From IMG/VR virus record IMGVR_UViG_2939521961_000009: 64,000 nucleotides of DNA; one strand, 5' to 3'. The position numbers were made by a program, and so were the translations under genes. The stretch comes from a virus (lineage: Duplodnaviria > Heunggongvirae > Uroviricota > Caudoviricetes). Position 1 is the stretch's first letter. Each line of letters begins with the position of its first letter. This document shows positions 1,301 through 64,000 of this stretch, piece after piece. The notes under the pieces are model-generated. The model saw only the letters and a program-made list of their open reading frames with translations. It searched no databases and was not told where the DNA came from.

Positions 1301-1861
1301 TTATTTTTCCGAAACGCTCGCAGGATAATAACGATAAAGGGTTGAAAGACCGATATCAAAAATAAGTGCCACCTGTCTTCGACTGACACCCCCGGCCAGT
1401 AAACGCCCGACCTGCTCGTATTGTTCCTGCGTGAGACGGCGGGGTCTGCCGCCGGTTCGTCCCCTTTCACGGGCAGCTGCAAGACCAGCCCGTGTCCGTT
1501 CGACAATTAATTCACGCTCCATTTCTGCCAGCGCACCCATTATGTGAAAAAAGAAACGCCCCATGGGGGTTGACGTATCAATGTTGTCAGTAAGACTACG
1601 AAAATTTATCCCCTGTTGCTGTAATTCATCTGTCAGCGCAACAAGGTGGCGCATACTGCGCCCCAGCCTGTCCAGTTTCCAGACCATCAGTGTGTCACCG
1701 GGTTTTAGTTTCTTCAGTGCCCGCTTCAGTCCCGGCCGCTGTGTCGTTTTACCACTCATTTTGTCTTCAAAAATCTGCTCACATCCTGCACATTCCAGCG
1801 CATTTCTTTGTAAACCGGTGTTCTGGTCATTTGTTGATACGCGTATATAGCCAATCAGCAT
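1301..1861 (-). CDS. pin: DNA invertase, Pin/Gin/Hin-family serine recombinase
   Basis: 186 aa, MLIGYIRVSTNDQNTGLQRNAL... with catalytic Ser motif and C-terminal HTH; near-identical in pattern to e14 Pin / Mu Gin as recalled. Confidence 0.9.
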   Translation of the reverse strand: MLIGYIRVSTNDQNTGLQRNALECAGCEQIFEDKMSGKTTQRPGLKRALKKLKPGDTLMVWKLDRLGRSMRHLVALTDELQQQGINFRSLTDNIDTSTPMGRFFFHIMGALAEMERELIVERTRAGLAAARERGRTGGRPRRLTQEQYEQVGRLLAGGVSRRQVALIFDIGLSTLYRYYPASVSEK

Positions 1862-1916: not shown

Positions 1917-1942
1917 TCCCTGAAAACCTCGGTTTACGGGAA
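1917..1942. other. gix/pix-like recombination crossover site (left)
   Basis: Reverse complement reads TTCCCGTAAACC GA GGTTTTCAGGGA, closely matching the Mu gix site as recalled (TTCCTGTAAACC GA GGTTTTGGATAA). Confidence 0.6.
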
Positions 1943-2083
1943 ACGGTAAATAAGGCGGCGAATGCCCTGCCATCGAACGGAACGGCTGTTGCAGCGAATA
2001 AACTCGCCACTCCAAGAAATATTAATGGTGTCCCATTTGACGGAACGCAGGATATAAATATTACATCGGGGATGACGCAGTCT
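1931..2083. repeat. Inverted repeat, left copy (~155 bp) of invertible segment
   Basis: Plus-strand 1931-2083 is near-identical to reverse complement of 3152-3304 (e.g. shared GGTTTACGGGAAACGGTAAATAAGGC). Confidence 0.8.
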
Positions 2084-2287
2084 GTGGCTGACTCACGTTA
2101 TGTTCAAAGCATTCGAAGAGGTTCAAGGTCAACGATTGGAATGCAATATAATATTTTTGAAGTTCCTGACGGATGCGTACTTACAGGGCTTGATGTCGCT
2201 GGTGATGGTAATGCAACGGTAACCGCATATTATCGACCTGTTCAGTTTCTGATAGATGGTTCGTGGAAAACAGCTTCCAGCGCATAA
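1931..2287 (+). CDS. Alternative tail-fibre C-terminal segment (S'v-like), no own start, silent in current orientation
   Basis: Open frame through the left repeat into unique sequence ...SVADSRYVQSIRRG...YYRPVQFLIDGSWKTASSA; parallels the expressed fibre tip. Confidence 0.55.
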   Translation, partial: GLRETVNKAANALPSNGTAVAANKLATPRNINGVPFDGTQDINITSGMTQSVADSRYVQSIRRGSRSTIGMQYNIFEVPDGCVLTGLDVAGDGNATVTAYYRPVQFLIDGSWKTASSA

Positions 2288-2366
2288 AAGTGCAGTAGTT
2301 CAAAAAACAGATTATCTGAATAAATATATGATGATTTTGTCTTTTCAACAAAAACAAGGTGAAATA

Positions 2367-2888
2367 ATGGAGCTTATTAACGTAAAACGATATTACCCGG
2401 AACACAAACCCTATGGTGAGGATGTTCAGTATTTCCAGAGTGAGGACGGAAGGGATTTTTATGAATCTATCCCGCTTTTCACAAAGAAATACAAACTCTG
2501 TATTTCGCCTGTAACGGGTATTATCTGCTCTGTTGCTGAAGATGTCTCTGCTTTATATCCGGCAGGTTTTACTGTTGTTGAAGTGGACGAACTGCCGGAA
2601 GGTGTGAATATTGACGGTAACTGGCAGTTTTCTGATGGCCTGATATCAAAGGTGCCGGTAAACTGGAAGACGGTTGCTGAAAAGCGTCGCTCATCGCTGC
2701 TCCAGGAAGCCAACGAAACCGTGGATGACTGGAAAACAGAATTAAAACTGGACATGATTAGCGATGAAAATAAATTACAGCTGACGCGCTGGATGGCGTA
2801 TATCCGACAGCTTAAAGAAATGCACTTTAATGATATTGCCAGTGAGGGGCATTACCAGGCGATTCCCTGGCCGGAAAAACCGGAATAA
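2367..2888 (+). CDS. Tail fibre assembly protein (Tfa/U-like), in the currently inverted (non-expressed) orientation
   Basis: MELINVKRYYPEHKPYGEDVQYF... typical Tfa N-terminus; AAGGTGA Shine-Dalgarno 5 nt upstream of ATG at 2367; ORF track lists a longer 2256 start. Confidence 0.8.
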   Translation: MELINVKRYYPEHKPYGEDVQYFQSEDGRDFYESIPLFTKKYKLCISPVTGIICSVAEDVSALYPAGFTVVEVDELPEGVNIDGNWQFSDGLISKVPVNWKTVAEKRRSSLLQEANETVDDWKTELKLDMISDENKLQLTRWMAYIRQLKEMHFNDIASEGHYQAIPWPEKPE

Positions 2889-2922
2889 TTCAGAGGGTGC
2901 ATTCAGCACCCTTTTCTGTGGT

Positions 2923-3834
2923 TTACACTGAACTTACCGTTCTCCAGGCATTATTAATATAAATCTGAACCGGGCGATAATAGACCCCACCGATATTGTC
3001 CGCAGACCGGGAGCCGGTTTCCTGCACGTTAATACCGGAAAGCATACAACCGGAAGGTGCGCTGTAATTCCATGATATTTCATTGCCTCCGGGTGAATGA
3101 TAGCTCTGTGCTCCAAGCTGAACATTCTGTACATACCGGCCATCTGCGGTTGACTGCGTCATTCCTGACGTGATGTTGATATCCTGCGTTCCGTCAAAAG
3201 GAACGCCATTAATATTTCTTGGGGTGGCGAGTCTGTTTGCTGCCACGGCGGTTCCACCCGATGGCAGGGCATCAGCAGCCTTATTTACCGTTTCCCGTAA
3301 ACCGACGTTATCGATAAAAGCGCCTTTATCCGGAATGTCTGCGCCGTTCTGCTCCCTGCGCAGGTAACGGTTATCACCTTCGCTTTTGCTGTAAACATCC
3401 AGATTATTACGGGCGGTTCCCGCATTCTCCAGGTCGGCAAGGTTCTGATCCTTCGCCAGAGCATTAACGTCACCGGGACCAAGACTGTTTTTTGTGGCAA
3501 GCGCCCCAAGACCAAGATAACCACGGGCAAGACGCTGGGCTTCCGCACCGGCATCAGCAATTTCTTTCAGGTTGTTTTTCCGGGAAAAGGCATTCGCAGC
3601 GATAATGGCTTTAATGGACAGCGTAAGCTGGTTTAACTGCGCCTTATCCGGCTGAATACTGGCTTCAGCCAGAATATTCAGCAGTTCGGCCTGGAGAATA
3701 TTCAGCCAGTCCTGACCAATCCAGCTGATACCTTTTTGTCCGTCACCTTCGGTAAACCAGGTGGTGGTATTACTCTGCGCCGGTGCCAGCGCAGGCATAT
3801 TCGCCACGCCGGAATTATTATCAACATGAAACAT
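2923..3834 (-). CDS. Tail fibre protein (Mu S-like); constant N-terminus fused to the currently expressed variable tip
   Basis: 303 aa; C-terminus crosses the gix site and right inverted repeat; start overlaps stop of upstream gene at 3834. Confidence 0.8.
   Translation of the reverse strand: MFHVDNNSGVANMPALAPAQSNTTTWFTEGDGQKGISWIGQDWLNILQAELLNILAEASIQPDKAQLNQLTLSIKAIIAANAFSRKNNLKEIADAGAEAQRLARGYLGLGALATKNSLGPGDVNALAKDQNLADLENAGTARNNLDVYSKSEGDNRYLRREQNGADIPDKGAFIDNVGLRETVNKAADALPSGGTAVAANRLATPRNINGVPFDGTQDINITSGMTQSTADGRYVQNVQLGAQSYHSPGGNEISWNYSAPSGCMLSGINVQETGSRSADNIGGVYYRPVQIYINNAWRTVSSV
3152..3304. repeat. Inverted repeat, right copy of invertible segment
   Basis: Reverse complement matches 1931-2083; encodes the conserved ...ATPRNINGVPFDGTQDINITSGMTQ stretch in both tail-fibre variants. 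Confidence 0.8.
3292..3317. other. gix/pix-like recombination crossover site (right)
   Basis: TTCCCGTAAACC GA CGTTATCGATAA on plus strand; shares the 12-bp half-site with the left site in inverted orientation. Confidence 0.6.
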
Positions 3835-17848: not shown

Positions 17849-17969
17849 ATTGCCTCCGTATAAAATATGAATATAAAATAAGCAGGCGGTCAGTGTACGC
17901 TTAACTGGTAAAGTCGGTGCCTGCCTCCGGGTGGATCATGTATGCGGGTTCGACCCCCGCCACTGACCG

Positions 17970-27118: not shown

Positions 27119-27205
27119 TCATGGACAGGTTTCCTGTAATCGCAAATATAACCCCCCCCCCAACACCGGAACGAAAATTGCGAAAAATACAAGTCTCTTT
27201 ATCAT
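27119..27205 (-). pseudogene. Small membrane-protein ORF interrupted by G10 tract (28 codons as sequenced; 61 aa to 27021 if tract is G11 or G8)
   Basis: ATG 27205 overlaps stop of upstream gene; MIKRLVFFAIFVPVLGGG then frame exits; restored frame is hydrophobic and ends in ATGA overlap with next gene. Confidence 0.45.
27152..27161. repeat. Homopolymeric tract, C10 on plus strand (G10 on coding strand)
   Basis: Ten consecutive C at 27152-27161. Confidence 0.95.
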
Positions 27206-31107: not shown

Positions 31108-31335
31108 TTAGCTGACTTGTTTCGCACCAACAGAACGGCATATTCCGCTGTAAACGTCTGTCGCACCTTCGCGATCAAGTCCGGCAGATATCACCATTCG
31201 TGTGCGGTCATTAAATTCAAAAAGAAAATCGCCACATTCTTTATTTTCGGCCAGTGAAATCACCTTCACGTTATCGAAATTAACCAGGTAAAAGCGTCCG
31301 TAAATATCAGGAATATTAAATACCGCCATAATCAC
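31108..31335 (-). CDS. Hypothetical small protein directly downstream of B (Kil position)
   Basis: 75 aa ORF overlapping B stop. Confidence 0.4.
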   Translation of the reverse strand: MIMAVFNIPDIYGRFYLVNFDNVKVISLAENKECGDFLFEFNDRTRMVISAGLDREGATDVYSGICRSVGAKQVS

Positions 31336-32264
31336 ACCTGTGAGAGTAATTCAGGGTTGGTATAAACCTCTTTAAAGGCCGCATTAATATGTTTTTCTGT
31401 CAGCGCCGCGCCTTCACCGCTGGCGGTGAGCCACGCCTGGTTAAGCGTATGTGTCAGAACGCGTAACGCTCCCGGCTTTTCAGCGATAGCCTGCATGACG
31501 GCCAGCTCGGCCTCACCACTGATCCCCCACGCCCTGGCAATGGCCAGCACATCCGCCTTTTTGGCCTTGCGAAGTTGTTTTGTACGGGCAAGACGGCTGA
31601 ACAGGCGCGATAAATCATCAAAGGCGCGGCGTCCACCTTTAAACAATCCGCGCGGGTTACCAATAAGCACCATCCCGATCCCCGTGGCGTCCTGAATTGC
31701 CCGGAGTTGCTCCAGACCGTCAATACCAAGATGATCCGCCTCATCCACAATCACCAGTCCACGCGTTCCCATCAGGCGACGGCGGATGGCGCGGGATAAT
31801 GCCCCTTTGTTCGCGCGGGTGTAATCAATCCCCAGCGCATCGGCCAGCTCCAGCAGACACTCCGTGACGCTGGAGTGCGCGGGTGACAGGGTGATCATCC
31901 AGGTGTTTGGTTGCTCCTGGCAGTAATTACGGGCAGTGGCCGTTTTACCCACACCCGGTACGCCCACAATAACGTTAATACAGCCCATCAGACGAACCGC
32001 CTGAAACAGTGCGCGCAGCTCCTGGACTGTCTGCGTTTCCACAAACTGCGGCGGTTCCGGCAGTGCGCTTTGTTTATTCCAGTTCTCATACCAGGAACGC
32101 AGGGAAGCAGCCACAGCAGCGTTATCGCCTTTATATTTTCCCTTACGGAAAGCCGATAATGTGCCGTCGGAAATTCCCGCCTCTCTGGCGATGGCATACT
32201 GCGTCAGTACGCCGCCATCAATAAGTTCATCAATGGTCTTGATTACATCGTTAATATCAGTCAT
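31332..32264 (-). CDS. B: Transposition ATPase MuB-like
   Basis: 310 aa; N-terminal HTH, Walker A GVPGVGKT. Confidence 0.9.
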   Translation of the reverse strand: MTDINDVIKTIDELIDGGVLTQYAIAREAGISDGTLSAFRKGKYKGDNAAVAASLRSWYENWNKQSALPEPPQFVETQTVQELRALFQAVRLMGCINVIVGVPGVGKTATARNYCQEQPNTWMITLSPAHSSVTECLLELADALGIDYTRANKGALSRAIRRRLMGTRGLVIVDEADHLGIDGLEQLRAIQDATGIGMVLIGNPRGLFKGGRRAFDDLSRLFSRLARTKQLRKAKKADVLAIARAWGISGEAELAVMQAIAEKPGALRVLTHTLNQAWLTASGEGAALTEKHINAAFKEVYTNPELLSQV

Positions 32265-32335: not shown

Positions 32336-34426
32336 TCAGGCCAGCGGGTCATTTTCTTTTAATTTCGCTTCCAGCAACTGCAATCCCCGCTGGAAATTAC
32401 GCTCGTATTCTTCATCAGGTTCATCGTCAGCGACCGGTTGCTGAACGGTCACCGTATTACCCACAGGGCGGTATATGTTTTCCAGCCAGGGCTCCTGCGG
32501 CTTGTGCTCCAGCACGTTGACAACCTCATCCTCGGCATCACGGATTTTTTCCTCTGCGCGTTTACGCATGCCTTTAAGGCGTTGCTGCTGTTTGTAGTAT
32601 TCCGCGCTAACCGGGAAGGCTTCGCGTTTATTACCGTCCCATACCGCCTCGCAAATCACGCTGCCATCCAGGCGACGTACGGTAATTCGTTCGGCATCAT
32701 GAATGTCATAGCTGATAAGCACCTTACGACCATGCTCGTCACGCAGCTCGGGCGCGTAGTAAATATTATTCAGCCAGCGTATTTCACAGCGTCTTACAGG
32801 GCGTTCCACCATCGGCCGGAACATATCCCGCAGCTCAACATCGGACAGCCATTCAATTTCCGTGTCCTCTTCCGCCAGGCGTTTTTTTCTGAACTCCGCC
32901 GGGCTGTAATGCTTGCCGTTCGGCTTCACCGGTAATTCATCGTGCGGCCGGTTGTTGTACCACTCAACACCGTCACGAATGGCATCAATCAGTTCAGACC
33001 AGGACGGTAAATCACGCATCGCTGACTGCTGCCGGGCGTTCAGCCGTTTGCCCTGTTGCAGGGCAGTAAATGCCGAGCGTAAATCGCGGTTGGTTTTGCG
33101 TAACGTCTCGCGATCTGCACCTTTCCCGAAATAGGTGCGGTATTTACGGGCTATGCGCATCGGTAATGTGCGGTTAAGCCGTTCGATAATGCCTCGTCCC
33201 TGCGGATTACCGGCAATCCCGGTCGGGTGATTAATCCCCAGTCGCGGCAGTATCCCCACAACCTCCTTATCCAGGATGTCGGCGGTTTCCCCGGAGCCGT
33301 TATCCGAGTAATACAGAAACGGTTTGCCGTGATGGCGAATGCCGTGCTGTATGGCACCGGCTACGGCGAAAACATTTTCAGCCAGGTCAAGGCTCCAGCC
33401 CACCACAAAGCGCGTGCCACCGTCGATAACAAAGGTCACTTCCGGTGCAAATGGCCGACCGTGAACCGGGTGTGCGCATTTCAGCTTCATGCCGTGACCG
33501 TCACCAATCCAGACATAATTCACCGGCATTCTGGACCAGTCGCGGCGCGTGAATCCCTCAAGCTGGCGGTATTCACTGCCGGTCACCCGGCCTTTTTGTT
33601 TCACCACTTCCGGCAGTTTCTTCATTGCGCGGCGAATGGTGTCATAAGACGGCATGATATCGAGCATATAAGGCTCATCAGCGTGCCGGTGCTGCCATTC
33701 AGCGACAAAATCCTCGTAAGCCTCGGTCATTGGTCGGCCGTTTGACTGGCGATACTGCGCCAGAAATTCGGGCAGCCAGTTAATATCTTCAGCTTTTATT
33801 TCCTGGCGCTTACCCGGTGCCAGTAAAAGCAGGCGTTCAGCGGCGTTCTGCGCCTTGTTAAAGGCCGCAATCCAGCGTTTCAGCGTTATTTCACTCAACG
33901 CACGGCTGTTTCCCTTTTTGGCGTTCGCCGTCTCAACCATTGCCACAATGCGCTCGTCCAGTTGCGAACGTGCCAGGTTGTCAACGATAAACCGGATAGC
34001 TTTCGCACAGCTGAAACCGGGTTGTTGCGCGACTTTCATCACTTCGCTGACGATCGCAATTCGTGCATCAGCCACCTGGCGCTGGTTTTCAGTCAGGGCA
34101 TTAAGGCGTTCAACCATCAGTTGTGGTGATCCGCGATATGCCTCCACCGCATCAACCACGGCAGGCGAGCGTCTGGCCTTTGTCACCACCGGAGCCGGTG
34201 ATTCATCAGCTTTTTGCGTCATCAGTTGAAGGGCATAACGTTCACGCAATACTTGTTGCGCGCCAGAAGGCAAACAATCGATATTAAATTCGATTGCTTT
34301 TGTCCCCTTACGTTTGCGTAACATGGCTGCATTTCCCGCAGCTGCTTTTGTGAGTCGATGGCGAATGTTATGTTCCATCATTGGTAAATCAGGAAGACCA
34401 ACACATTCTTTTGCTGTTACCCACAT
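32336..34426 (-). CDS. A: DDE transposase MuA-like
   Basis: 696 aa; N-terminus WVTAKECVGLPDLP parallels Mu A WVSPKECANLPGLP; followed by B. Confidence 0.9.
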   Translation of the reverse strand: MWVTAKECVGLPDLPMMEHNIRHRLTKAAAGNAAMLRKRKGTKAIEFNIDCLPSGAQQVLRERYALQLMTQKADESPAPVVTKARRSPAVVDAVEAYRGSPQLMVERLNALTENQRQVADARIAIVSEVMKVAQQPGFSCAKAIRFIVDNLARSQLDERIVAMVETANAKKGNSRALSEITLKRWIAAFNKAQNAAERLLLLAPGKRQEIKAEDINWLPEFLAQYRQSNGRPMTEAYEDFVAEWQHRHADEPYMLDIMPSYDTIRRAMKKLPEVVKQKGRVTGSEYRQLEGFTRRDWSRMPVNYVWIGDGHGMKLKCAHPVHGRPFAPEVTFVIDGGTRFVVGWSLDLAENVFAVAGAIQHGIRHHGKPFLYYSDNGSGETADILDKEVVGILPRLGINHPTGIAGNPQGRGIIERLNRTLPMRIARKYRTYFGKGADRETLRKTNRDLRSAFTALQQGKRLNARQQSAMRDLPSWSELIDAIRDGVEWYNNRPHDELPVKPNGKHYSPAEFRKKRLAEEDTEIEWLSDVELRDMFRPMVERPVRRCEIRWLNNIYYAPELRDEHGRKVLISYDIHDAERITVRRLDGSVICEAVWDGNKREAFPVSAEYYKQQQRLKGMRKRAEEKIRDAEDEVVNVLEHKPQEPWLENIYRPVGNTVTVQQPVADDEPDEEYERNFQRGLQLLEAKLKENDPLA

Positions 34427-34436
34427 ACATCCCCCA

Positions 34437-34703
34437 TCAAGCCACTTCTCTGGCGTCCACCTGGTATCTGCTGGGCCAGATTACAGCAGGTTCAACCCCT
34501 ATTTTTTCGGCGATGGCGGCTTCGTATTTACGGCACTGGCGGTAAAACACATTGCGCATTGATCCGCTTTTTAATCCTAACTCCCTTTCCAGTTCAGGGA
34601 GGTCTGTGCCTTTGTTTTCAAGGGCTGCATATACCGCTTTAGCAGACCAGTCACACCCCTCTCGAACAAACAAATTATTCGATGCTTGTCTGGATACCCT
34701 CAT
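34437..34703 (-). CDS. ner: Ner-like DNA-binding protein
   Basis: 88 aa ending ...VIWPSRYQ as in Mu Ner. Confidence 0.8.
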   Translation of the reverse strand: MRVSRQASNNLFVREGCDWSAKAVYAALENKGTDLPELERELGLKSGSMRNVFYRQCRKYEAAIAEKIGVEPAVIWPSRYQVDAREVA

Positions 34704-34859: not shown

Positions 34860-35471
34860 ATGGATAAGGCAGAAAAAACCGTATCCAGTGCGGAACGGTT
34901 TATTGATATGGAAGGAATAAACCGATTTTCAGAACGCTTAGCTATGGCTATGGGAAACATGACAAACGTCGAACTGGCGACCCTTTGTGGACTATCTGAA
35001 GCCACAGTAAGAAATTACAGGAAGGGGAAAAACTTCCCTCCTTTGGATAAACTGGCCTTAATAGCTAAAGCCTGTAATTGTTCACTCGAATGGTTGGCCA
35101 CAGGCAAGAACGAAGATGAATGCGGAAAAATCGAAAACAATTGCGATTCAGGTTCGGGTATTGATCAGGCGCTTAGCTCTCTAAGCCCCCAAGAGAAGCA
35201 ATTAATCCTTACATTCATCAGGCGAGAAGGTACTAATAACCTTGTCAGGCTGGCAGCAATGAATACATCTACAATCAGCCAGGATGCGGTAGAAAGCATC
35301 ATTGATGCCTTGCCATTACGTCCCGTACTAAAAAATGCAATAAAGATAGGAATGGCGGGAAGTGAAGAAACAGACAAAGAGATTTTGCGCGTTATTGAGA
35401 AGTACAACTCGAGCAATAACGCCACCCAGGAATCAGGGGCAGTGACAGTAAAGAAAAATGTTGTTGGTTAA
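34860..35471 (+). CDS. HTH (XRE-type) repressor, Mu c-analogue
   Basis: 203 aa; N-terminal HTH NVELATLCGLSEATVRNYRKG; divergent from ner at the prophage left end. Confidence 0.7.
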   Translation: MDKAEKTVSSAERFIDMEGINRFSERLAMAMGNMTNVELATLCGLSEATVRNYRKGKNFPPLDKLALIAKACNCSLEWLATGKNEDECGKIENNCDSGSGIDQALSSLSPQEKQLILTFIRREGTNNLVRLAAMNTSTISQDAVESIIDALPLRPVLKNAIKIGMAGSEETDKEILRVIEKYNSSNNATQESGAVTVKKNVVG

Positions 35472-35654: not shown

Positions 35655-35838
35655 GGTAAATTAGCAGTATCAAATGTGTCGCCGTTTTTTGATCTTTTGA
35701 CTATTTGTTGAGCAGTCGGTATCAAAAAGAGTTTTCCGTCCGAAGTATACATCACCTGTTTTATTTCAGCATCTTACAGGTGATTTCACCTCCTTTCACT
35801 AAAACCCTTGTCGGTATCAAATGATTCACCTGGTTACA
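35655..35838. repeat. Mu-like left-end (attL) with three transposase-binding repeats and terminal TG
   Basis: Minus strand reads TGTAACCAGG TGAATCATTTGATACCGACAAG (like Mu L1 TGATTCACTTGAAGTACGAAAA); further TTTGATAC(C/T)G copies at 35707-35729 and 35655-35678. Confidence 0.55.
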
Positions 35839-35985
35839 CTGGTCGGCAGTTCGGTTCTCCCGTCGGGCTTTGTGTGTCCGCGTCGTTTTTACGGCCTCAT
35901 AAGCCTGGATCACCGCACGGGAACGCAGCCTTGCCGCTTTCCATCCTGGTGAAAAAACGCCAATCACATCATCAAGAATTGCCAT
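35839..35985 (-). pseudogene. Lambda-family portal protein, N-terminal 49 codons only (truncated by Mu-like insertion)
   Basis: MAILDDVIGVFSPGWKAARLRSRAVIQAYEAVKTTRTHKARRENRTADQ then frame runs into Mu-like end; follows W and terminase A in lambda order. Confidence 0.65.
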
Positions 35986-36203
35986 CAGAACCTCGCCAGC
36001 CGGTACCCGGGATGCCCCCGTCGTCGTGTAATCAGAGCCGCAAGGCGGCGCTCCCACTCCTGCCGTCCCTGCCGGATCTCAGATAAGTTTTCCATGGTCA
36101 TCTGCTGACCATTAAAGGTGACGGATTTTCCGTCCAGCACCGCCATTTCAGCTTCCGTATAACGCTGAATCATGGCTTCGATATCATTCTGGTTCATAAC
36201 CAT
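35985..36203 (-). CDS. Head-tail joining protein W-like
   Basis: 72 aa ending ...RRRGHPGYRLARF, located between terminase A and portal. Confidence 0.65.
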   Translation of the reverse strand: MVMNQNDIEAMIQRYTEAEMAVLDGKSVTFNGQQMTMENLSEIRQGRQEWERRLAALITRRRGHPGYRLARF

Positions 36204-38293
36204 CCTCCGGAAGTCAGCCAGGGGTTAACATCGTCAGTTACTGTTTTCTTCCGTTTTTGTTTTTTAACAGGCGTGGATACCGGTTCCGGTGAGGATGACG
36301 GTTCGGTACTGTCCTGGACACACTCCAGCCAGGTCTCCCGGCTCGCCCACTCCGGTGCATCCGGCCAGCGGATCTTTTCGTATCCATGCAGAATGACCAG
36401 AGCCTCGGCATACACCATCAGGTCAAAAGCTTCGTTGGCACCGCGACCCGGCTTACTCCATTTCCCGTCACTGCTCCGCTCTTCATACGTCAGTTCGTCG
36501 TAAAACCAGCTCCCCAGCCAGTCAGGGAAATGCACATAGCCTGGACCTGGCGAGTCACGCCATAACGCGTTATTCACCCGGTCTTTCAGGGCATCCGTCT
36601 GAAGAAGCCAGAGCGGCACATCACCTGCGGCCTGCGCCCGGCGGCCCGTTCGTCCGGTGTTATCAGGGAATGTACGGCTGATCAGTTTTGCGCGCCGGAT
36701 GCTGTCACCCTTAAACAGGTAAATACGTTTACCAAGGCCATCACGACGGCAACGACGCCAGAATTTATAGGCATTATCAGTGACCCCGTCTTCACCGCCG
36801 GAGTCCACCGCCATTGCCATCAGTCGCATTTGTTGAGAAGGATCGGAGGCCAGCGGCCAGCTTTTATGAAAAACATCCGTCAGCAGGACATCCCAGTCTT
36901 CCGGATAGCTGGCCGGATCAATTCGCTGGCTCTCCCCGTCGCAGTCACTGCGCAATGACTGCGTGATGTTGTAACGATCAATAATCCAGCGTTCGCCACG
37001 ACTGCCATAGCCCGTTACCTGAACCACAAAACGGCGATGACGTCCCGCCTGCACATCCACTGTCGCCACAAGGAAATTAACGCCATCCGGCACACTGCGG
37101 GAAGGAACTGGCTCTGCCCGCTGCTCAAGCAGTTCACTTTTTCGTTGCTCCATGCTGGCACGAGGAAGATAAGGCAATCCCCAGTCGGTGTTGATAACCG
37201 CCCTGAGTGTTTCTTCGCTTCCTGTCGCTTCATACTCCTGTTCTGCAGTCAGTAATTTGTAAACCAGTTGCGCCCAGGTCTGATACGCAGCAGCTGGCCC
37301 TTCCATCCAGAAACTGGCGATACGGGAGCGGCGCGGTTCACCGGAAACGTTGCCGTTACGATCAATGACCTGACCTTCACGCAACCAGACTCCTGCACTA
37401 TTGAGCTCACGCTTTTTCTCCGCAGTGATAATGCCGCTGCAGTGCGGGCAAAGTAGATACGCCGCCTCACTGGCTTTAAAGGGATCCGGTTCATTACGGT
37501 AGCCGGTCATGGCATCCATGGCTGGCTGAAAATATTCACCGCAGTGCGGACATGACCAGTACCAGCGGCGGCGGTCACCACGATTGTAAAGGGAAAGAAT
37601 ACCAGTCGTCGGTGGCGCTTCATGAGGCGACTTACGTCGCCATTTGCTGTCGCAGATGTCACGTCCCGGCGAGCTCTCCACCAGAGTCATCCCAGCGGAC
37701 ATAAATGTGGTGGTACGTTTTGAGGCCAGGGAGAAACCATCACCCTCGCTGTCGATATTCTCCGGAAAACGGTCGTAATCGGTTAAGGCGACAAACCGGT
37801 AATCCGACGACGACATAATGTTGACCGAGGGCCAACCAATTTTAAGGAACGAGCCATCCCTGAACGTCTTATCATGGACATTATTGTCGTTACGACGTGG
37901 ACTCATTCTTTTCTTTACCGCCGCACTGCTTCTGAACGTTCTGTCGAGGCGCTTTTTAGAATGCTCGCGGGCCTTATCTTCGGTCATCTGCACAACGAGC
38001 ATGTCCGAAGGATCGCAAACGATGGTATAGACAATCCATCCATCGATCAGACCAATGGTCTTCCCTGTTCGCGCAGGACCAACAAAAATCACCGCATCGT
38101 ATTCACGCGATGCCAGGCAGTTCATGGGCTCAATGATGTAGGGTGTCAGTTCAGGATCCCATGGCACCGAGTTACCAGCCCCCTTGGGAACACGCATGAA
38201 TTTTTTAACAGCCTCCGAAATCGGCATGCGACGTGGTGGGGAAAATCCTGCCGATATGTCCCTTCCCAAATTTCGGGCTGATGAAAAACCCAT
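36194..38293 (-). CDS. Terminase large subunit (lambda gpA-like)
   Basis: 699 aa; Walker A GPARTGKT. Confidence 0.9.
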   Translation of the reverse strand: MGFSSARNLGRDISAGFSPPRRMPISEAVKKFMRVPKGAGNSVPWDPELTPYIIEPMNCLASREYDAVIFVGPARTGKTIGLIDGWIVYTIVCDPSDMLVVQMTEDKAREHSKKRLDRTFRSSAAVKKRMSPRRNDNNVHDKTFRDGSFLKIGWPSVNIMSSSDYRFVALTDYDRFPENIDSEGDGFSLASKRTTTFMSAGMTLVESSPGRDICDSKWRRKSPHEAPPTTGILSLYNRGDRRRWYWSCPHCGEYFQPAMDAMTGYRNEPDPFKASEAAYLLCPHCSGIITAEKKRELNSAGVWLREGQVIDRNGNVSGEPRRSRIASFWMEGPAAAYQTWAQLVYKLLTAEQEYEATGSEETLRAVINTDWGLPYLPRASMEQRKSELLEQRAEPVPSRSVPDGVNFLVATVDVQAGRHRRFVVQVTGYGSRGERWIIDRYNITQSLRSDCDGESQRIDPASYPEDWDVLLTDVFHKSWPLASDPSQQMRLMAMAVDSGGEDGVTDNAYKFWRRCRRDGLGKRIYLFKGDSIRRAKLISRTFPDNTGRTGRRAQAAGDVPLWLLQTDALKDRVNNALWRDSPGPGYVHFPDWLGSWFYDELTYEERSSDGKWSKPGRGANEAFDLMVYAEALVILHGYEKIRWPDAPEWASRETWLECVQDSTEPSSSPEPVSTPVKKQKRKKTVTDDVNPWLTSGGWL

Positions 38294-38301
38294 TATTCCT
38301 C

Positions 38302-38859
38302 CTAGAGACTCTCTCCTTCCTCATCAGGAATTAATTCAGCAGCACAAGCCTCGTAGGATTTTTCCTGAAGAGTGTATCGCAGGTCATCAATGGCCTGCTG
38401 TACAACGCCGACGGCCTGAGGAGTCAGGGCGCAATCGCGTTCAAGAACATCCGGAATTGTCTCCAGAACCTGGACGACAGCCTTTCTCATGGACGAATAG
38501 ACGATGACTACTTCATCAACGGGGATGAGTTTTCGCTGCTCCTTTTCCAGCTTGATCCTTTCATTTTCAGATTGGTACCAGTCCTTTCTCTCTTTCGGCT
38601 CCATACGGGATGGATCATGAACAGAGTCTGCTGCCTCATGCTTCACACTAAACAGGGCTGGCCCGACATGCTGCAGGGCGTAAACGGGGTTCCCCCTGAC
38701 AGTCGCAGCCACAGGAGTGTTAGCCGCGAGGAGCCGTTTTTTTACTGTGTCCCGGTGAAGCCCAAAGGCCTCAGCGATTTTAAAAACACTCCAGTAATAA
38801 GCATCACCGATCCCGCTCACATTTGACATAAGCAACTCCATCTGGCAGGTGAAAATCAT
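38302..38859 (-). CDS. Terminase small subunit (Nu1/NohA-like)
   Basis: 185 aa, N-terminal HTH, upstream of gpA. Confidence 0.8.
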   Translation of the reverse strand: MIFTCQMELLMSNVSGIGDAYYWSVFKIAEAFGLHRDTVKKRLLAANTPVAATVRGNPVYALQHVGPALFSVKHEAADSVHDPSRMEPKERKDWYQSENERIKLEKEQRKLIPVDEVVIVYSSMRKAVVQVLETIPDVLERDCALTPQAVGVVQQAIDDLRYTLQEKSYEACAAELIPDEEGESL

Positions 38860-49794: not shown

Positions 49795-51438
49795 TGTAGT
49801 CACTTTTGTGGGGACAGTCCACAAAACTGCCAACTTCCGCTTCTTGCTCTTAGCGGACATTAGCATAGGCTATTTACCATAACGCCTCATTACGCGCACC
49901 GCCCAGACTGACTCAGCGCGTTTCTGGCATATCCCCGGTAAAACAAGTAACAAACCACCCGAAAATGAACATCAGAAACGCGACTTAAGAATCTACCCTA
50001 TGAATGGATATGCACTCAACCGAATCGATCTTGGTTTCAATCTATTTTATCGGGATCAGGCTTCTTTTTAGGTAACTTCGGGGGCTTAACTTGCTGATGA
50101 CTTTGCGTTCGGCGCGTAAGCCAGGGATGGTCAGCTTTAGATTTAACATAGTATTTTGAGCGTAAATCAATACGGGCATTATCCACTCGTTCATGGACAC
50201 TCTTTTCATCATCCAGTGGTATAGGCTCCGGGCCATCAACATACTTTTCCCAGCCCAGCGCTTTCCCGTCATACAGAACGTTAATTTCACCGTCAAAGTT
50301 CTCACATACAGTAACAACCGAATGCCTAAGTCGATATCCCCGGCCCTCACTGCGTACCTGAAACGCACTGCTTTTGTACTGGAAAGTGAGATTTTTAGAC
50401 AGAACGCGCTTCGCCTGTAGGCTGAAGATATAACCCAGTTCCTCTTCAGAATGGTGCACATCAAGATGAGCATTATCAGTAGTACGAGGCGACGTAGCGA
50501 ACCGGTTGTTATAGGCTTCAATAAAGGTCGGCAACCATGCATTTGCTGTTTCAATATCACTGATATTCTGAAGCCGCATTTCTTTGACCAGCCTGTCCTG
50601 TAGTGTCTGATTGGCGCGCTCTACCCGCCCTTTTGCCTGCGGGCTGTTGGCATGGATTGGCTCGATGCCCAGTGTCTTTATCGCACGAGTGAACTGGGTC
50701 AGCTCACCTTCCCGCTCTGGGTTATTTACCCTGAATATACTGTGTCTATCAGAGTAGAGAGCGAGCGGTACGCCATGATCATTAAGGTAACCCCGGAGGG
50801 TTTCCATGTAAGCCCGGGTTGTTTCAGCAGGCACAAAACGCAACGCCATCAACGCACTGGTGGCATCATCAATGAAAACGATCAGTGTACATCTGGGGCC
50901 TCGATTTTCAAACCAGTCATGAGGTGAGCCATCAATCTGGATCAGTTCACCGTAAGATGGTCGTCGCATGCGGCGTTGATATATACGGGCAATTTTACGA
51001 CGGCGTTCACGCCATAACCCCTCTTCTATCATCCACTTTCTGAGAGTTTCAACGGATAAAGATAAACCGTGTATCTCGCGCAATTTTTCGCACGCAAACG
51101 TAGGTCCAAAATCAGCGTAACGGCCTTTGAGGAGTGAAATTACTGTTGCTCTGAATTCAGTAGAAAAGGAATTATTAGGACGCTTTCCACGTCGGTGGGA
51201 AACCAGACCAGAAGGCCCTTCATTTCTATACCGTTGCACCAGACGTTTAACCTGCCGAATAGAAATGCCAATGCGTGCCGCAGCTTGTTCCTGAGTAATA
51301 TGTCGATTAATTGACTCCTGAATAATCTGAAGTCGGTGGAGTTCCTTATGACTCATCGTAACAGTCTCTTTGATCATGAAAAATCCCCCAGAGAATTGTC
51401 TGGGGACATTTTAGAATGGTTCAAAGGGGACATTACAG
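49795..51438 (-). mobile_element. Insertion sequence carrying single rve-type DDE transposase (IS481/ISNCY-like); boundaries approximate
   Basis: Single 446-aa HTH+integrase-core transposase; candidate TGTA-initiated imperfect ends; no target duplication confirmed. Confidence 0.4.
50037..51377 (-). CDS. DDE (rve/integrase-core) transposase with N-terminal HTH
   Basis: 446 aa; LIQIDGSPHDWF...IDDATS...YSDRHSIF... integrase-core-like D,D,E spacing. Confidence 0.75.
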   Translation of the reverse strand: MIKETVTMSHKELHRLQIIQESINRHITQEQAAARIGISIRQVKRLVQRYRNEGPSGLVSHRRGKRPNNSFSTEFRATVISLLKGRYADFGPTFACEKLREIHGLSLSVETLRKWMIEEGLWRERRRKIARIYQRRMRRPSYGELIQIDGSPHDWFENRGPRCTLIVFIDDATSALMALRFVPAETTRAYMETLRGYLNDHGVPLALYSDRHSIFRVNNPEREGELTQFTRAIKTLGIEPIHANSPQAKGRVERANQTLQDRLVKEMRLQNISDIETANAWLPTFIEAYNNRFATSPRTTDNAHLDVHHSEEELGYIFSLQAKRVLSKNLTFQYKSSAFQVRSEGRGYRLRHSVVTVCENFDGEINVLYDGKALGWEKYVDGPEPIPLDDEKSVHERVDNARIDLRSKYYVKSKADHPWLTRRTQSHQQVKPPKLPKKKPDPDKID

Positions 51439-58387: not shown

Positions 58388-58582
58388 TGTTCAACTGTCG
58401 CCGGTTGTGACTGGTATTCTGCAACCGGCGCTCGTCTGATGTAAGAGATAAAGAAATCGATGAGCGAAGTAATCATGATTGTCTCTCCCGGCAAATGGGT
58501 ATCCGAAGAGCAGTTAATTGCGCTGAAAGGAATAAAAAAAGGTACGTTAAAAGTAAGCGACTCGTCAGAACCGTATTGATAT

Positions 58583-60154
58583 TTACTGAGAGCTCAGATC
58601 AACTTTCCAGGGCAACAGATCGCGTACCCGGTTTGCCGGCCAGTCCTGGATATGTTCAATGACGTAACGCAGCCACTTTTCTGGCTCCACATTGTTCAGA
58701 CGGCATGTGCCGATCAGCGAGTACAACACCGCCGCATGTTCACCACCGCTGTCGGAACCCGCGAACATCCAGTTTTTCCGGCCTACGGCCACTCCCCGTA
58801 AGGCGTTCTCTGCGATGTTGTTGTCGATTTCCACCCAGCCATTACTGCAGTACACGTTCAGTGCATCCCACTGTTTCAGCAGGTATGCGAACGCTTTTGC
58901 CGTATCTGAGTGACGCGACAGTGTTTTCATCTGTTGCTGTATCCAGTCATACAGTGACTGCATCAGTGGCGCGGCTCTGGCTTTTCTTGCCGCCAGACGC
59001 TGTTCTGCTGAACAGCCCCGGACCTCTGCCTCGATGGCATACAGTTCACCGATACGCTGCAGGGCTTCCGTGGTGATGTAGGTGGGCGCTCTTGCATGCA
59101 CATCGTGGATTTTTCTCCGGGCATGAGCCATACACGCGGCTTCCGTTATTCTGCCGGATTCGTATAACGCCCGGTAACCACCGTAAGCATCGGCCTGAAG
59201 CACACCGCTGTAACCGGCCAGGTGATTTTGTGGATGGATACCTTTCCGGTCCGGACTGTACGCGAACCAGACCGCCGGGGGCATCTGTGAACCGGCGTTA
59301 CGGTCATCACGGACGTAGACCCACAGCCGGGCTGTCCGGGTTTTACCGCTGCCCGGCTCCTGGACCGGGACGGGGATATCATCAGCATGGACTTTACCGG
59401 GCATCAGCACATACTGGCGCAGGACGTCATACAGCGGCTCCAGCAGTTCAGCAACAGCACCTGTCCAGCGCCCCAGTGTGGCACGGCTCAGCTCCACTCC
59501 CTGACGACGGTATATTTCTGACTGGCAGTATAACGGCAGATGGTCTGCATATTTCCCGGTGACAACATGGGCCAGAAGCCCCGCTCCGGCATAACTGCGT
59601 GCAATGGGTTTTGAAGGTACTGGTGCCTGCACGATATGGTCGCACCGGCAACAGGCCTGTTTCGGACGTTGTGTTTCGATAACCTTAAAGGCGCTGCTGA
59701 TAAGCTCCAGTTGCTCTGACACATCACATCCCAGAGAACTGAGTTCACCACCACAGGCAGGACAGCATTCCTCTTCCGGCCGGATAACCCGGGTTTCACG
59801 GGGAAGTGAGGCCGGTAACGGTTTACGGGCTGAAGACTGGCGCAGGGCGGATGGCAGTACCGGGTCATATTGCTCACCCAGCGTTTCCGCCATTTCTTCC
59901 TGAAGTGCGCTGATTCGCTCCTGTGCTTCCTGTATCTGCCGTTCGGTTTTTGCACGAAGTTTTTCTGAGCTTTTACCGAACTGCATACGTTGCAGTTTCG
60001 CAACCAGCGCCTTCAGCCGGTTGATTTCGGAAGCATAAGCCGCCACCCGCTGTGAGAGCAGGCGGTTGTATTCAGCCATCTGGCGGATGGTGTCCTGTTG
60101 CGTCTGCAACAGTGCCCGCAGGCGGGCGTTCTCATGAGCAAGTGAGGTGTCCAT
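58583..60154 (-). CDS. IS66-family transposase TnpC
   Basis: 523 aa; leucine-zipper-like N-terminus, CxxC zinc motif, IS66-type DDE region. Confidence 0.85.
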
Positions 60155-60173
60155 ATCCTCACTTTACAACGGG

Positions 60174-60521
60174 TTATATGCGGATTCCAGCGCGTTCCGT
60201 TCGTTTCGGGTGCTTCCAGTTGATACCTTCAAGAAGCATGGATAACTGAGCCGGAGTAAGGTGCACCTTGCCGTCACGGGTGACTGGCCAGACGAAGCGG
60301 CCCCGCTCCAGGCGTTTGGTGAAGAGGCACAGTCCGTCACTGTCAGCCCACAACACTTTTATCTGGTCACCCCGGCGTCCGCGGAAGATGAACAGGTGTC
60401 CGGAGAACGGGTCATCCTTCAGGACGTTCTGAACTTTTGATGCCAGGCCGTTAAAGCCATTTCGCATATCGGTGATACCTGCAACCAGCCAGATACGCGA
60501 ACCTGCAGGGAGAGATATCAT
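60174..60521 (-). CDS. IS66-family Orf2 (TnpB)
   Basis: 115 aa from MISLPAGSRIWLVAGITDMR... Confidence 0.8.
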   Translation of the reverse strand: MISLPAGSRIWLVAGITDMRNGFNGLASKVQNVLKDDPFSGHLFIFRGRRGDQIKVLWADSDGLCLFTKRLERGRFVWPVTRDGKVHLTPAQLSMLLEGINWKHPKRTERAGIRI

Positions 60522-60622
60522 CAGTGGCTGCTCCCTTTTATTTCGCGGATAAGTGTCTGTAATAACGCCGGCGTCAGTTTGAGGTGTACTGGCAATAGCG
60601 GACACTACCATTTGTTCTTTTT

Positions 60623-61441
60623 TTAAGCAGCCATCTGATGATATTTTTCCCTGAAGGCTGCCGGGGAGATATTCCCCAGACGAGAGTGACGACGCTGACG
60701 ATTGTAGAAAATCTCAATGTATTCCCGTATTACTGAGATGGCTTCATCCCGGTTATTAAAACGATAGTGGCTCAGGCTCTCATTTTTCAGCGTTCCCCAG
60801 AAGCTTTCCATCGGAGCGTTGTCGTAACAGTTACCTTTACGCGACATTGATGTTTTCAGACCAAACTGCTCCTGTATGACCCGGTAATCGTATGCGCAGT
60901 ACTGTGAACCTCGATCAGAGTGGTGGATTAGCCCGGCAGGTGGGCGCTGGCTCCTGAGCGCCATAAACAGAGCTTTACCTGTCAGCTCTTTTGTCATGCG
61001 CTCTCCCATGGCGTAGCCGACAATTTCGCACGTATAAACATCTTTGATGCCAGCGAGGTACAACCATCCCTCCTGTGTGGCAACATACGTCAGGTCCGCC
61101 ACCCAGACCTGATTTGGTGCTGTAGGAGCGAACGTCTGGTTCAGCAGATTTGGCGCAACTGGCAGATTGTGGTTCGAGTTCGTAGTCGCTCTGAACTTGC
61201 GTTTCTGCTTACAGCGTAGCCTTAGCTCCTTACGAAGACGTGCCAGTCGGTCACGACCAACGATGATGCCATTCTCTGCCAGCTCCGTCTGGAGCCGCCG
61301 GGTTCCATATGTTTCGCGAGTGCGGATATGTGCCACCTTAATCTCCAGTTTTAGCCGCTCATCACTTTGTTTTCTGTCTGAGGGTTCATGCTGTACCCAG
61401 TTGTAATAACCGCTCCTGGATACACCAAATACCTGACACAT
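60623..61441 (-). CDS. IS3-family transposase OrfB (integrase core)
   Basis: 272 aa; DDE motif region; frame continues upstream into orfA. Confidence 0.85.
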   Translation of the reverse strand: MCQVFGVSRSGYYNWVQHEPSDRKQSDERLKLEIKVAHIRTRETYGTRRLQTELAENGIIVGRDRLARLRKELRLRCKQKRKFRATTNSNHNLPVAPNLLNQTFAPTAPNQVWVADLTYVATQEGWLYLAGIKDVYTCEIVGYAMGERMTKELTGKALFMALRSQRPPAGLIHHSDRGSQYCAYDYRVIQEQFGLKTSMSRKGNCYDNAPMESFWGTLKNESLSHYRFNNRDEAISVIREYIEIFYNRQRRHSRLGNISPAAFREKYHQMAA

Positions 61442-61476
61442 CGCTTCAATGGGAAATTGTTGTCGCCATTGTTCGA

Positions 61477-61779
61477 TTAACGCGTATTTTTCAGCGACTC
61501 CTGTGCAAAATACGCTGTTGCTTTTTTTAATATATCTCGATCAAGGCGAGCTTCATTTAACGCCTTACGCAGTTGCAGAATTTCAGATTCCAGTTCAGCC
61601 ACCGTGCGGGAACCAGGAGTACCGAGCCCTTTTCTGGCGGCGGTAACCCATTGTCCTAAAGTGCCTTCAGGAAGAGATAATCGGGAAGCGCCTTCACTGA
61701 TCGAAAGTTGATTTTCAAGAACCGTTCTGACAGCTTCGGCTTTGAACTCTTTAGAGTAACGTTGGGTTTTTCTGCTCAT
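61477..61779 (-). CDS. IS3-family transposase OrfA (HTH)
   Basis: 100 aa MSRKTQRYSKEFKAEAVRTVLENQLSISEGA... Confidence 0.85.
   Translation of the reverse strand: MSRKTQRYSKEFKAEAVRTVLENQLSISEGASRLSLPEGTLGQWVTAARKGLGTPGSRTVAELESEILQLRKALNEARLDRDILKKATAYFAQESLKNTR
61523..61529 (-). other. A7 slippery heptamer for -1 programmed frameshift OrfA to OrfAB
   Basis: Minus strand TTA AAA AAA GCA in orfA frame; -1 frame reads through to MCQVFGVSR. Confidence 0.7.
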
Positions 61780-61843
61780 TATTAGCTCCTTCTGATGCCA
61801 TTCTATTTCAGGAAGGAGTGTCCGTTAAACTCAGGCTACCTCA

Positions 61844-62465
61844 GTTTACCTTTAAGCCTGAGAGTTCCGGCCGGCAGAACCAGCTCACAACACAGACTGT
61901 CGGACGGTGTATTTATCTGCTCTGGTTCCTGTGCGGGGGCCGGGATTTTATTATCCGGCTCCGGCGTTAACGTCACGGGAAGCAGTGCCGGCATATTTTT
62001 TCCGGAAGGCAGCAGGCCACCTTTCCGGTATTGATGGCGCCAGTTGAAGAGCAGGTTATCGTTGATTCCGTTTTCCCGGGCGATCTGCGCCACACAGGCT
62101 CCGGGCTGCAGTGACTGCTCCACTAAGGCGATTTTAAACTCATAAGGGAAGTTGGGCCGCCGGGGACGTTTTTTTACCACGGGGGCTTCGGATATAACGG
62201 TGCTTTCAGGACGTACGACTGGTACCGTGGAAAATTGTCCGTAAAGGCAGGCATCAAGTTCCTGCTCCGACATGCCTGCGGGCAAAGGCCACGAAAGGCC
62301 AGCTCTCCGAAAGCGCACGAACATACTACAAACTGTTGATTTTGGTACACCCAGGCGACGCCCGGCCACAACCCGGGGTAAATGTTCTTCAAAGTGAAGA
62401 CGTAAAGCTTCAGTGATCCAGGTCCGGTGTTTCATACGATAGTGTCCATTAAAAATGATGGACAT
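61844..62465 (-). pseudogene. IS66-family Orf1 (TnpA-like), C-terminus interrupted by IS600-like insertion
   Basis: Frame would continue across the insertion site to overlap orf2 start once the IS3 element and one GTT are removed. Confidence 0.55.
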
Positions 62466-62704
62466 TATTTTTGTAGAGCCGGAGGAAACAGACCAGACGG
62501 TTTAAATGAGCCGGTTACCGTTAAAAAAGGCCCGGGAAAAATCGTTTATGGAAGGAAGGGAATATAAGCATGTCGCTCATGACGGTATGCCATGGGATAA
62601 CAGTCCATGCTTTTATAACCTGGAAGAAATTGATCGCTGGATTGAGCGCCAGGCATCAGCGAGACCAAGACGTCATCTTACTTGACTAAAAGCCACACTA
62701 ACTA

Positions 62705-64000
62705 ATGAGAGAAGTTGAAATGAAATATCCGACAGGCGTGGAAAACCATGGAGGGAAATTACGTATCTGGTTTGTTTATAAAGGCGTAAGAGTCAGGGAA
62801 AATCTGGGGGTTCCTGACACATCAAAAAACAGGCGCGTTGCAGGTGAACTACGCTCCTCTGTTTGTTACGCAATAAAAACTGGTGTTTTCGACTATGCAA
62901 AACAGTTTCCCTCCTCACGCAATCTGGAAAAATTTGGTGAGGCCCGACAAGATTTAACCATAAAAGAACTGGCTGAAAAATTTTTGGCACTGAAAGAAAC
63001 TGAAGTCGCCAAAACATCACTCAACACATACCGTGCCGTCATCAAAAATATCCTGAGCATAATCGGTGAAAAAAATCTTGCCTCATCGATTAATAAAGAA
63101 AAATTACTGGAGGTTCGTAAAGAGCTACTGACTGGATACCAGATCCCCAAAAGTAACTATATTGTTACACAACCAGGGAGATCGGCTGTAACTGTAAATA
63201 ATTACATGACAAATCTTAACGCCGTGTTCCAGTTTGGTGTTGATAACGGTTACCTGGCAGATAATCCGTTTAAGGGGATCTCGCCATTAAAGGAATCAAG
63301 AACCATTCCGGATCCTCTTTCGCGGGAGGAATTTATCCGTCTTATCGATGCGTGCAGAAATCAGCAAGCAAAAAATTTATGGTGTGTTTCTGTTTATACT
63401 GGCGTTCGCCCTGGTGAGCTGTGTGCACTTGGATGGGAGGACATAGATCTGAAAAATGGAACAATGATGATCAGGAGAAATTTAGCAAAAGACCGTTTCA
63501 CGGTACCAAAAACACAGGCGGGAACCAATCGGGTCATTCATCTTATTAAGCCAGCAATCGACGCTCTCCGGAGTCAGATGACATTAACGAGACTGAGCAA
63601 AGAGCATATCATTGATGTTCACCTCAGAGAGTATGGCAGAACAGAAAAACAAAAATGCACCTTTGTTTTTCAACCTGAAGTGTCAGCGAGAGTAAAAAAT
63701 TATGGTGACCATTTTACCGTTGACTCAATAAGGCAGATGTGGGACGCAGCGATAAAACGTGCCGGACTCCGCCATCGAAAATCATATCAGTCGAGACATA
63801 CTTATGCCTGCTGGTCGCTGACAGCTGGTGCTAACCCGGCATTTATAGCAAACCAGATGGGCCATGCAGATGCGCAAATGGTATTTCAGGTATACGGAAA
63901 ATGGATGTCTGAAAACAATAATGCACAGGTAGCTTTGTTAAATACACAGTTAAGCAAGTTTGCCCCAACCATGCCCCATAACGAAGCAATGAAAAATTAA
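62705..64000 (+). CDS. Tyrosine-recombinase phage integrase (IntQ-like); stop codon at window end
   Basis: 431 aa; C-terminal catalytic region with R...HxxR...Y (RHTYA) pattern. Confidence 0.85.
   Translation: MREVEMKYPTGVENHGGKLRIWFVYKGVRVRENLGVPDTSKNRRVAGELRSSVCYAIKTGVFDYAKQFPSSRNLEKFGEARQDLTIKELAEKFLALKETEVAKTSLNTYRAVIKNILSIIGEKNLASSINKEKLLEVRKELLTGYQIPKSNYIVTQPGRSAVTVNNYMTNLNAVFQFGVDNGYLADNPFKGISPLKESRTIPDPLSREEFIRLIDACRNQQAKNLWCVSVYTGVRPGELCALGWEDIDLKNGTMMIRRNLAKDRFTVPKTQAGTNRVIHLIKPAIDALRSQMTLTRLSKEHIIDVHLREYGRTEKQKCTFVFQPEVSARVKNYGDHFTVDSIRQMWDAAIKRAGLRHRKSYQSRHTYACWSLTAGANPAFIANQMGHADAQMVFQVYGKWMSENNNAQVALLNTQLSKFAPTMPHNEAMKN

Follow-up and report, generated by a model that had tools for sequence, protein, structure and literature searches.

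The window, a stretch of 64,000 nucleotides whose position 1 is position 2,959,491 of the E. coli strain War chromosome record (NZ_CP074717.1, plus strand), holds most of a Mu-like transposable phage lying directly against the packaging genes of a lambdoid prophage. Unless another sequence is named, positions are those of the window; L001 denotes the upstream War chromosome. The lambdoid features are as follows:

35839-35985, minus strand: N-terminal 49 codons of the portal gene (lambda family, gpB-like), cut by the insertion (translation)
35985-36203, minus strand: gpW-like head-tail adaptor, 72 aa (phrog_118, E=1.4e-37)
36194-38293, minus strand: large terminase of the gpA family (Pfam GpA_ATPase and GpA_nuclease)
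38302-38859, minus strand: small terminase, DUF1441 (Pfam DUF1441; phrog_141, terminase small subunit)
58460-62685, plus strand: xis gene split by ISCro1 (IS66 family) with IS600 nested inside it (RefSeq annotation)
62705-64000, plus strand: tyrosine integrase, next to rspB (Pfam Phage_integrase, Arm-DNA-bind_2)

On the minus strand the packaging genes run in the order small terminase, large terminase, gpW-like adaptor (a 72-aa ORF matched in PHROGs and without a match in Pfam) and then 49 portal codons, from 35985 to 35839. Translated on this strand, positions 35700-36060 read MAILDDVIGVFSPGWKAARLRSRAVIQAYEAVKTTRTHKARRENRTADQ and thereafter CNQVNHLIPTRVL... before a stop; the portal ORF starts MAILDDVIGVF... 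at 35985 and keeps its 49 codons up to ...NRTADQ, where CNQVNHLIPTRVL takes over. RefSeq labels this stub 'phage portal protein, incomplete, missing C-terminus'. An intact homologue in O26:H11 11368 has the same MAILDD start, is 502 aa long without a break and is annotated as a phage portal protein; the stub (35839-35985) is identical to the first 147 nt of its gene. The intact protein matches Pfam Phage_portal_2 (PF05136) with E=7.6e-82, and the 49-aa stub, too short for a profile match of its own, receives this assignment through the rejoined gene, which encodes the O26 protein. Gene order also agrees with a lambda-family portal: small terminase, large terminase (gpA), gpW-like adaptor, portal, protease/capsid.

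The preliminary description, made from the sequence alone, had ended the portal N-terminus at 35838/35839, and comparison with the intact gene places the junction exactly there. The O26:H11 11368 sequence continues across this point uninterrupted (...GGCTTAACTGGTCGGCAG...), whereas the window reads ...CACCTGGTTACA/CTGGTCGGCAG, and in the alignment the portal frame stops at 35838 with no continuation. One megablast portal match that reached window position 35830, 9 bp inside the phage end, was an extension artefact from partial matches. A 1.1-kb query spanning the junction matched War at 100% over its full length and found matches in 2024 of 5426 complete E. coli genomes; among the matches listed, all except War cover the lambdoid part alone (query 531-1101), and War is the only genome with the junction. 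In the annotated structural and early regions of the lambdoid prophage that were read, there is no second portal gene, only the missing C-terminal part.

This C-terminal part, the remaining 1362 nt of the gene, adjoins the phage right end 38.84 kb away, to the left of the window. The right junction reads ...GGCTTAACTGG/TATAGCGCGGCGATTTTTTTGATACCG..., and the feature past it is annotated 'phage portal protein, incomplete, missing N-terminus'; beyond it come a ClpP-protease/major-capsid fusion and then a lambda-type tail module that extends as far as J, Lom and the tail fibre. The Mu-like right end that the preliminary description had proposed to look for thus lies 38,839 bp from the left end, abutting the rest of the portal gene. 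When the phage and one CTGG were excised in silico, by joining window 35985 to 35839 with L001 16485 to 15124, the product was a 1509-nt ORF with 0 nt differences from the O26:H11 11368 portal gene. A deletion, a recombination breakpoint and a chance resemblance are ruled out by this perfect rejoined gene. The portal gene now consists of two fragments, a 49-codon N-terminal stub and a 454-codon promoter-distal remainder 38.84 kb downstream, and since the rejoined gene shows no difference from the intact allele, the insertion appears to be recent; it also appears to be specific to strain War. The presence of a Mu-like transposable prophage within the lambdoid portal gene, the core of the preliminary description, is thereby supported.

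The phage side of the junction contains the following features:

1-35838, minus strand: Mu-like prophage of the Sp18 type, first 35,838 of 38,839 bp (99.7-99.96% identity over its length to five other replicons)
1-1203, continuing to L001 18643, minus strand: 672-aa protein with a SASA sialate O-acetylesterase domain and DUF6645, between the invertase gene and com/mom
1301-1861, minus strand: invertase gene (Pfam Resolvase)
31332-32264, minus strand: MuB-like AAA+ target-capture ATPase (Pfam Phage-MuB_C, E=2.5e-25; AAA_22)
32336-34426, minus strand: transposase A, DDE type, 696 aa (Pfam Mu-transpos_C, E=1.5e-17; HTH_Tnp_Mu_1; phrog_310 transposase, E=1e-209)
34437-34703, minus strand: Ner-like early regulator, winged HTH (Pfam HTH_35, E=1.7e-20)
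34860-35471, plus strand: repressor, CI-type HTH, divergent from the early operon (Pfam Phage_CI_repr/HTH_3; phrog_3037 transcriptional repressor, E=3e-59)
35665-35838, minus strand: Mu-like prophage left end (attL), starting 5'-TGTAACCAGGTGAATCATTTGATACCG (end identical in 13 copies)
35839-35842, no strand: target-site duplication CTGG, copy at the phage left end (junction sequences)

In phage orientation the termini are 5'-TGTAACC...GCGCTATA-3', located at window 35838 (left) and L001 16490 (right). The minus-strand phage sequence from 35838 begins TGTAACCAGGTGAATCATTTGATACCGAC..., and on the window plus strand the sequence common to all copies runs from TATAGCGCGG... to ...CCTGGTTACA. Among the 13 copies with an identical left terminus are Sp18 of Sakai and one copy inserted in an Stx2c phage; the right terminus, ...GCGCTATA-3', ends in TA in 12 of the 12 copies whose right end was read. 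Within the left end, three TTTGATAC(C/T)G sites occupy phage positions 18-27, 113-122 and 165-174. The window contains four occurrences of TTTGATACYG against 0.30 expected (0 of 100 shuffles reach four), and three of them lie on the minus strand no more than 174 bp from the junction, at 35812-35821, 35717-35726 and 35665-35674. The right end has TTTGATACYG at positions 18-27 and 40-49 and a variant at 75-83, inverted relative to the left end, and the repeats at both phage ends qualify as putative transposase-binding motifs. The terminal TG and the repeated Mu L1-like putative binding motifs that the preliminary description had read at the left end are directly legible there, at three sites.

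In the intact target CTGG occurs once (TTAA-CTGG-TCGG); in War a second copy stands left of the window, at L001 16486-16489. Ten of ten independent insertions of the phage carry a 4-bp direct repeat:

Strain War, portal gene: CTGG
Strain 2012C-4502, melA: AACG
Strain EH031, etk: TATG
Strain 88.0502, adjoining gabP: CGTG
Strain 380-94, siiEA: GGTG
Strain Show KS 470-1, betT: GTTG
Strain 2014C-3307, alcohol dehydrogenase gene: TCCA
Strain 2018-166, terminase gene of another prophage: GTTT
Strain SJ7, at dprA: AACA
Sakai (Sp18), sorM: TAAA

Strain 142, the 'plasmid' p8479-1 and 2010C-3347, in which unrelated genes stand on the two sides of the phage without a duplication, were left out of this count. 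For the nine insertions tabulated before Sakai, agreement at a fifth base is about what chance would give (4 of 9 to one side, 2 of 9 to the other), and in Sakai neither side agrees. The phage ends can also be fixed independently, because the motif TTTGATACCG falls at positions 18-27 from both termini when each is counted from T. Together, the ten-insertion comparison and the motif spacing identify CTGG as the War duplication and the next T as base 1 of the phage right end. The preliminary description had expected a 5-bp duplication, CTGGT: these letters are literally present on both sides, but the true repeat, judged from ten insertions, is the 4-bp CTGG. Two 5-bp alternatives, CTGGT with a right end starting ATAGCG and ACTGG with a left end starting GTAACC, were rejected on fifth-base agreement and motif spacing. 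An apparently invariant G preceding the right end was a selection artefact of the top matches, as matches beginning at query base 2 show A, T and A. Since the asymmetric termini (TG left, TA right) and the 4-bp repeat hold in every copy surveyed, they are features of the phage group and not defects of the War copy. The 4-bp duplication is already recorded in GenBank: the record LC727881.1 covers an Stx2c phage that carries a Mu-like insert, and it annotates a 4-bp 'duplication due to insertion of Mu' adjoining the same TGTAACCAGG end. We found no paper in the literature that discusses the 4-bp duplication.

The early genes next to the junction had been described as repressor-ner-A-B, and ORF strands together with Pfam and PHROG matches confirm this: a left-end repressor diverges from a ner-A-B operon in which a Mu-type DDE transposase is followed by a MuB-type ATPase. 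The repressor at 34860-35471 is of the CI type (Phage_CI_repr) and not of the Mu c type, and no peptidase S24 domain was detected in it. A Mu-type late gene set, com and mom are present as well (RefSeq annotation of War and sister copies; Pfam Mom and Resolvase). Annotation of the window's late region from sister copies comprises Mor, lysozyme, spanins, a DUF935 portal, a MuF-like head protein and a protease, then the gpT major head protein, sheath, tube, tape measure and baseplate, and the last features of the region are an invertible tail-fibre segment and the gene for a Gin-type serine invertase. This segment (1922-3312) is bounded by inverted repeats at 1922-2106 and 3128-3312, with 185-nt arms that are 81% complementary; it lies one way in War, EH031, strain 142 and p8479-1 and the other way in 2012C-4502 and 88.0502. 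The last 3 kb of the phage, left of the window, hold the rest of the SASA esterase gene, two small DUF genes, a frameshifted ORF, com, mom and the right end. We take the SASA/DUF6645 protein to resemble the nanS-p cargo genes of STEC lambdoid prophages.

At 38,839 bp the War copy is one base shorter than its closest relatives and otherwise collinear with them. The difference is a G-run at 27150-27156, where five sister copies read GGGGGGTGGTTTTA and War, one base shorter, reads GGGGGGGGGGTTA; this loss frameshifts a 61-codon early ORF and could be either a homopolymer sequencing error or a real frameshift. Sister copies carry a PGAP 'tRNA-OTHER' feature in the gap between the MuF-like and virion-morphogenesis genes, which corresponds by homology to L003 20991-21070 to about 17890-17969 (plus strand) of the window; ARAGORN found no tRNA anywhere in the window. 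Overall, the phage is full-length and probably still active.

The War phage belongs to the known Sp18 group: it has exactly the termini of the Mu-like prophage Sp18 in O157:H7 Sakai. Matches to its end regions come from about 233 of the 5426 complete E. coli genomes and lie at many loci, and in the War record the phage is found at one place. The same phage lies at melA, etk, betT, siiEA, sorM, dprA, near gabP, in an alcohol dehydrogenase gene and in another prophage's terminase, many unrelated sites each with a short duplication, and some further sites in the survey fall in or next to genes of other prophages that are annotated as terminase, head-completion or HK97-gp10-like. Hits of this kind are expected from near-random transposition, because much of the DNA in these genomes is prophage. 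The copies in strain 142, p8479-1 and 2010C-3347 suggest Mu-mediated rearrangements, excised circles or errors of assembly. The p8479-1 copy, on a 'plasmid' of 166,865 bp (NZ_CP074995.1), is flanked by the chromosomal genes ydhX and yeaW, and this strain carries a further copy on its chromosome. By transposase, the best database matches are LC727881.1 and LC727895.1 (94% identity). Among isolated phages Yersinia vB_YpM_5 comes closest (78%), with Klebsiella phages, SuMu (43%) and D3112-type Pseudomonas phages (30%) also among the nearest.

Previous work describes Sp18 as apparently intact and efficiently packaged, not circularised and not induced by mitomycin C (PMC2669165); a repressor without a detected S24 domain fits this absence of induction. 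Sp18 relatives occupy strain-specific sites (PMC7430833). In 13 closed genomes of CC119 STEC, 6 of 10 Sp18-like phages were inserted in mobile elements, and several Stx phages of these strains carry Mu-like insertions (PMC10132054).

The interrupted prophage lies at the Qin locus, adjoining rspB, and bears the markers dicB, ydfD, relBE, hokD, cspB/F/I, essD, rrrQ, rzpQ and ydfT/U. Its lambdoid character is evident from a tyrosine integrase, xis, an exonuclease (exo), a CI/Cro-type switch, a Q-type antiterminator, lysis genes and lambda-type head and tail genes (J, Lom, tape measure). The early region also contains a truncated ISEsa1 transposase gene (50307-51377). Sixty-six genomes, O26:H11 11368 among them, share the xis::ISCro1 junction at 100% identity, and at least 11 of the 66 keep an uninterrupted portal sequence across the insertion point; in both O26:H11 11368 and War, exactly 22,365 bp separate this junction from the portal start. 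Because the xis lesion is common to 66 genomes and at least 11 of these have the portal intact, the IS lesion would have come first and the Mu-like insertion second; by parsimony, the xis lesion is probably older than, and independent of, the War insertion. With xis split by IS elements, we infer that the prophage was already excision-defective when the Mu-like phage arrived.

Portal protein (gpB) is essential for lambda-type head assembly. Given this requirement, a lambdoid prophage without its own portal would be expected to form no proheads of its own; portal could be supplied in trans by another prophage. The preliminary description had held that the insertion inactivated the resident prophage, and this stands in part: the portal gene is destroyed, but the first crippling hit was not the Mu-like phage, xis having already been split by IS elements.

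What the two junctions record is almost certainly the integration, by DDE transposition, of an Sp18-type Mu-like phage into portal codon 50 of a Qin-like lambdoid prophage of strain War. The transposase joined both phage ends to target positions staggered by 4 bp, leaving CTGG on both sides; the portal stub runs into phage DNA and stops, with the remainder promoter-distal. Such an event is the predicted outcome of random transposition in a prophage-rich genome. A misplacement of the Mu-like prophage into the lambdoid prophage during repeat resolution, that is, an assembly artefact, might be suspected from War standing alone with the junction among the matches listed from 5426 genomes, from the repeat-rich nature of STEC-like genomes and from the three other phage copies with unrelated genes on their two sides. 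We find it hardly credible, as both junctions fall exactly at the phage termini with the typical 4-bp duplication, which a mis-join would not generate, and the single phage copy in War leaves no second copy to confuse the assembly; that the flanks rejoin into a perfect portal gene (0 of 1509 differences) weighs strongly against mis-assembly.

Accepting transposition into the portal gene, the states of the two elements at the time of the event can be read differently. That the insertion killed an otherwise functional lambdoid prophage would agree with the established need for gpB in lambda-type heads, with a portal gene split without further decay and with terminase, head, tail, lysis, Q-type antiterminator and integrase genes that are all annotated intact. 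We consider this rather unlikely in view of the xis gene split by ISCro1 and IS600, the truncated ISEsa1 transposase gene and the finding of the same xis lesion in genomes with an uninterrupted portal, which by parsimony would make it predate the War-specific insertion. The Mu-like insertion is better understood, we infer, as a further hit on a decaying prophage than as the first. It is quite improbable that the Mu-like element is itself a dead remnant fixed long ago: although a small early ORF has a 1-bp deletion and every copy has a 'frameshifted hypothetical protein' annotated close to com, the element has its full length (38,839 bp) and is 99.7-99.96% identical to copies at many other sites, its tail-fibre segment lies one way in some copies and the other way in others, the two portal halves show no difference from the intact allele and Sp18 DNA is efficiently packaged (PMC2669165). 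The late operon of the lambdoid prophage (terminase, portal) faces the same way as the early operon of the Mu-like phage (ner, A, B), both being on the minus strand. That Q-antiterminated lambdoid late transcription reads into ner-A-B, antisense to the Mu repressor, with induction of the host prophage triggering transposition of a Mu-like phage that mitomycin C does not otherwise induce, strikes us as a very long shot; lambdoid induction is itself doubtful because of a DicA-like switch and the damaged early region.

Transposition of an Sp18-type phage into the portal gene accounts for the pair of 'incomplete portal' pseudogenes found 38.8 kb from each other in the War genome, and the junction can be used as a strain-specific marker for War. 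It illustrates how prophages decay by mutual hits, a randomly transposing phage landing in the structural genes of a resident prophage. The War case is an ordinary strain-specific instance of a documented phenomenon, as both the phage family and its landing in lambdoid and Stx prophages are already recorded.

Compared with Mu, the War phage has the same layout of repressor, ner, A, B, semi-essential early genes, Mor, lysis, head and tail, and the same later part, with an invertible fibre segment and Gin-type invertase followed by com and mom, as well as near-random transposition. Each end has three putative sites at what we take to be Mu-like positions, ending at 27 (both ends) and 49 (right end). 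In contrast, Mu makes a 5-bp duplication and has a CA right terminus where the War phage has 4 bp and TA, and the War phage differs further in its CI-type HTH repressor and its SASA-type sialate O-acetylesterase cargo gene. The transposase is only distantly related to MuA: in a phmmer search against PDB sequences it matched retroviral integrase cores only, in keeping with a retroviral-integrase-like core, and no MuA chains; phage Mu is absent from the best 25 phage matches to the transposase. 'Mu-like' is thus right for lifestyle and layout, and strict membership of Mu fails on the CA terminus, the 5-bp repeat and closeness to MuA.

The closest known relatives are Sakai Sp18 and its STEC counterparts (for example, Phi804-3 of FRIK804), which share the termini TGTAACCAGGTGAATCATTTGATACC ... 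CGCCGCGCTATA and the 4-bp duplication and, like the War phage, occupy strain-specific loci at sizes of 38.76-39.2 kb (PMC7430833; PMC2669165). Sp18 differs from the War phage in lying in sorM rather than in a lambdoid portal gene, and besides this in a few SNPs and one 1-bp indel. LC727881.1 and LC727895.1, from the CC119 STEC Stx phages (Microb Genom 2023), represent the same phage group, with 94% transposase identity and a nearly identical left end. There the Mu-like insert lies within a short ORF of the structural region of a lambdoid prophage; the host is an Stx phage, whereas in War it is a Qin-like non-Stx prophage, and the target gene differs too.

For the host prophage, the defective Qin (Kim) prophage of K-12 lies at the same locus next to rspB and shares the marker genes listed above. 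Presumably, K-12 Qin is without any structural genes. The full-length Qin counterpart in O26:H11 11368 is identical to War in its portal, terminase and xis::IS junction, and to this shared arrangement War adds the Mu-like phage.
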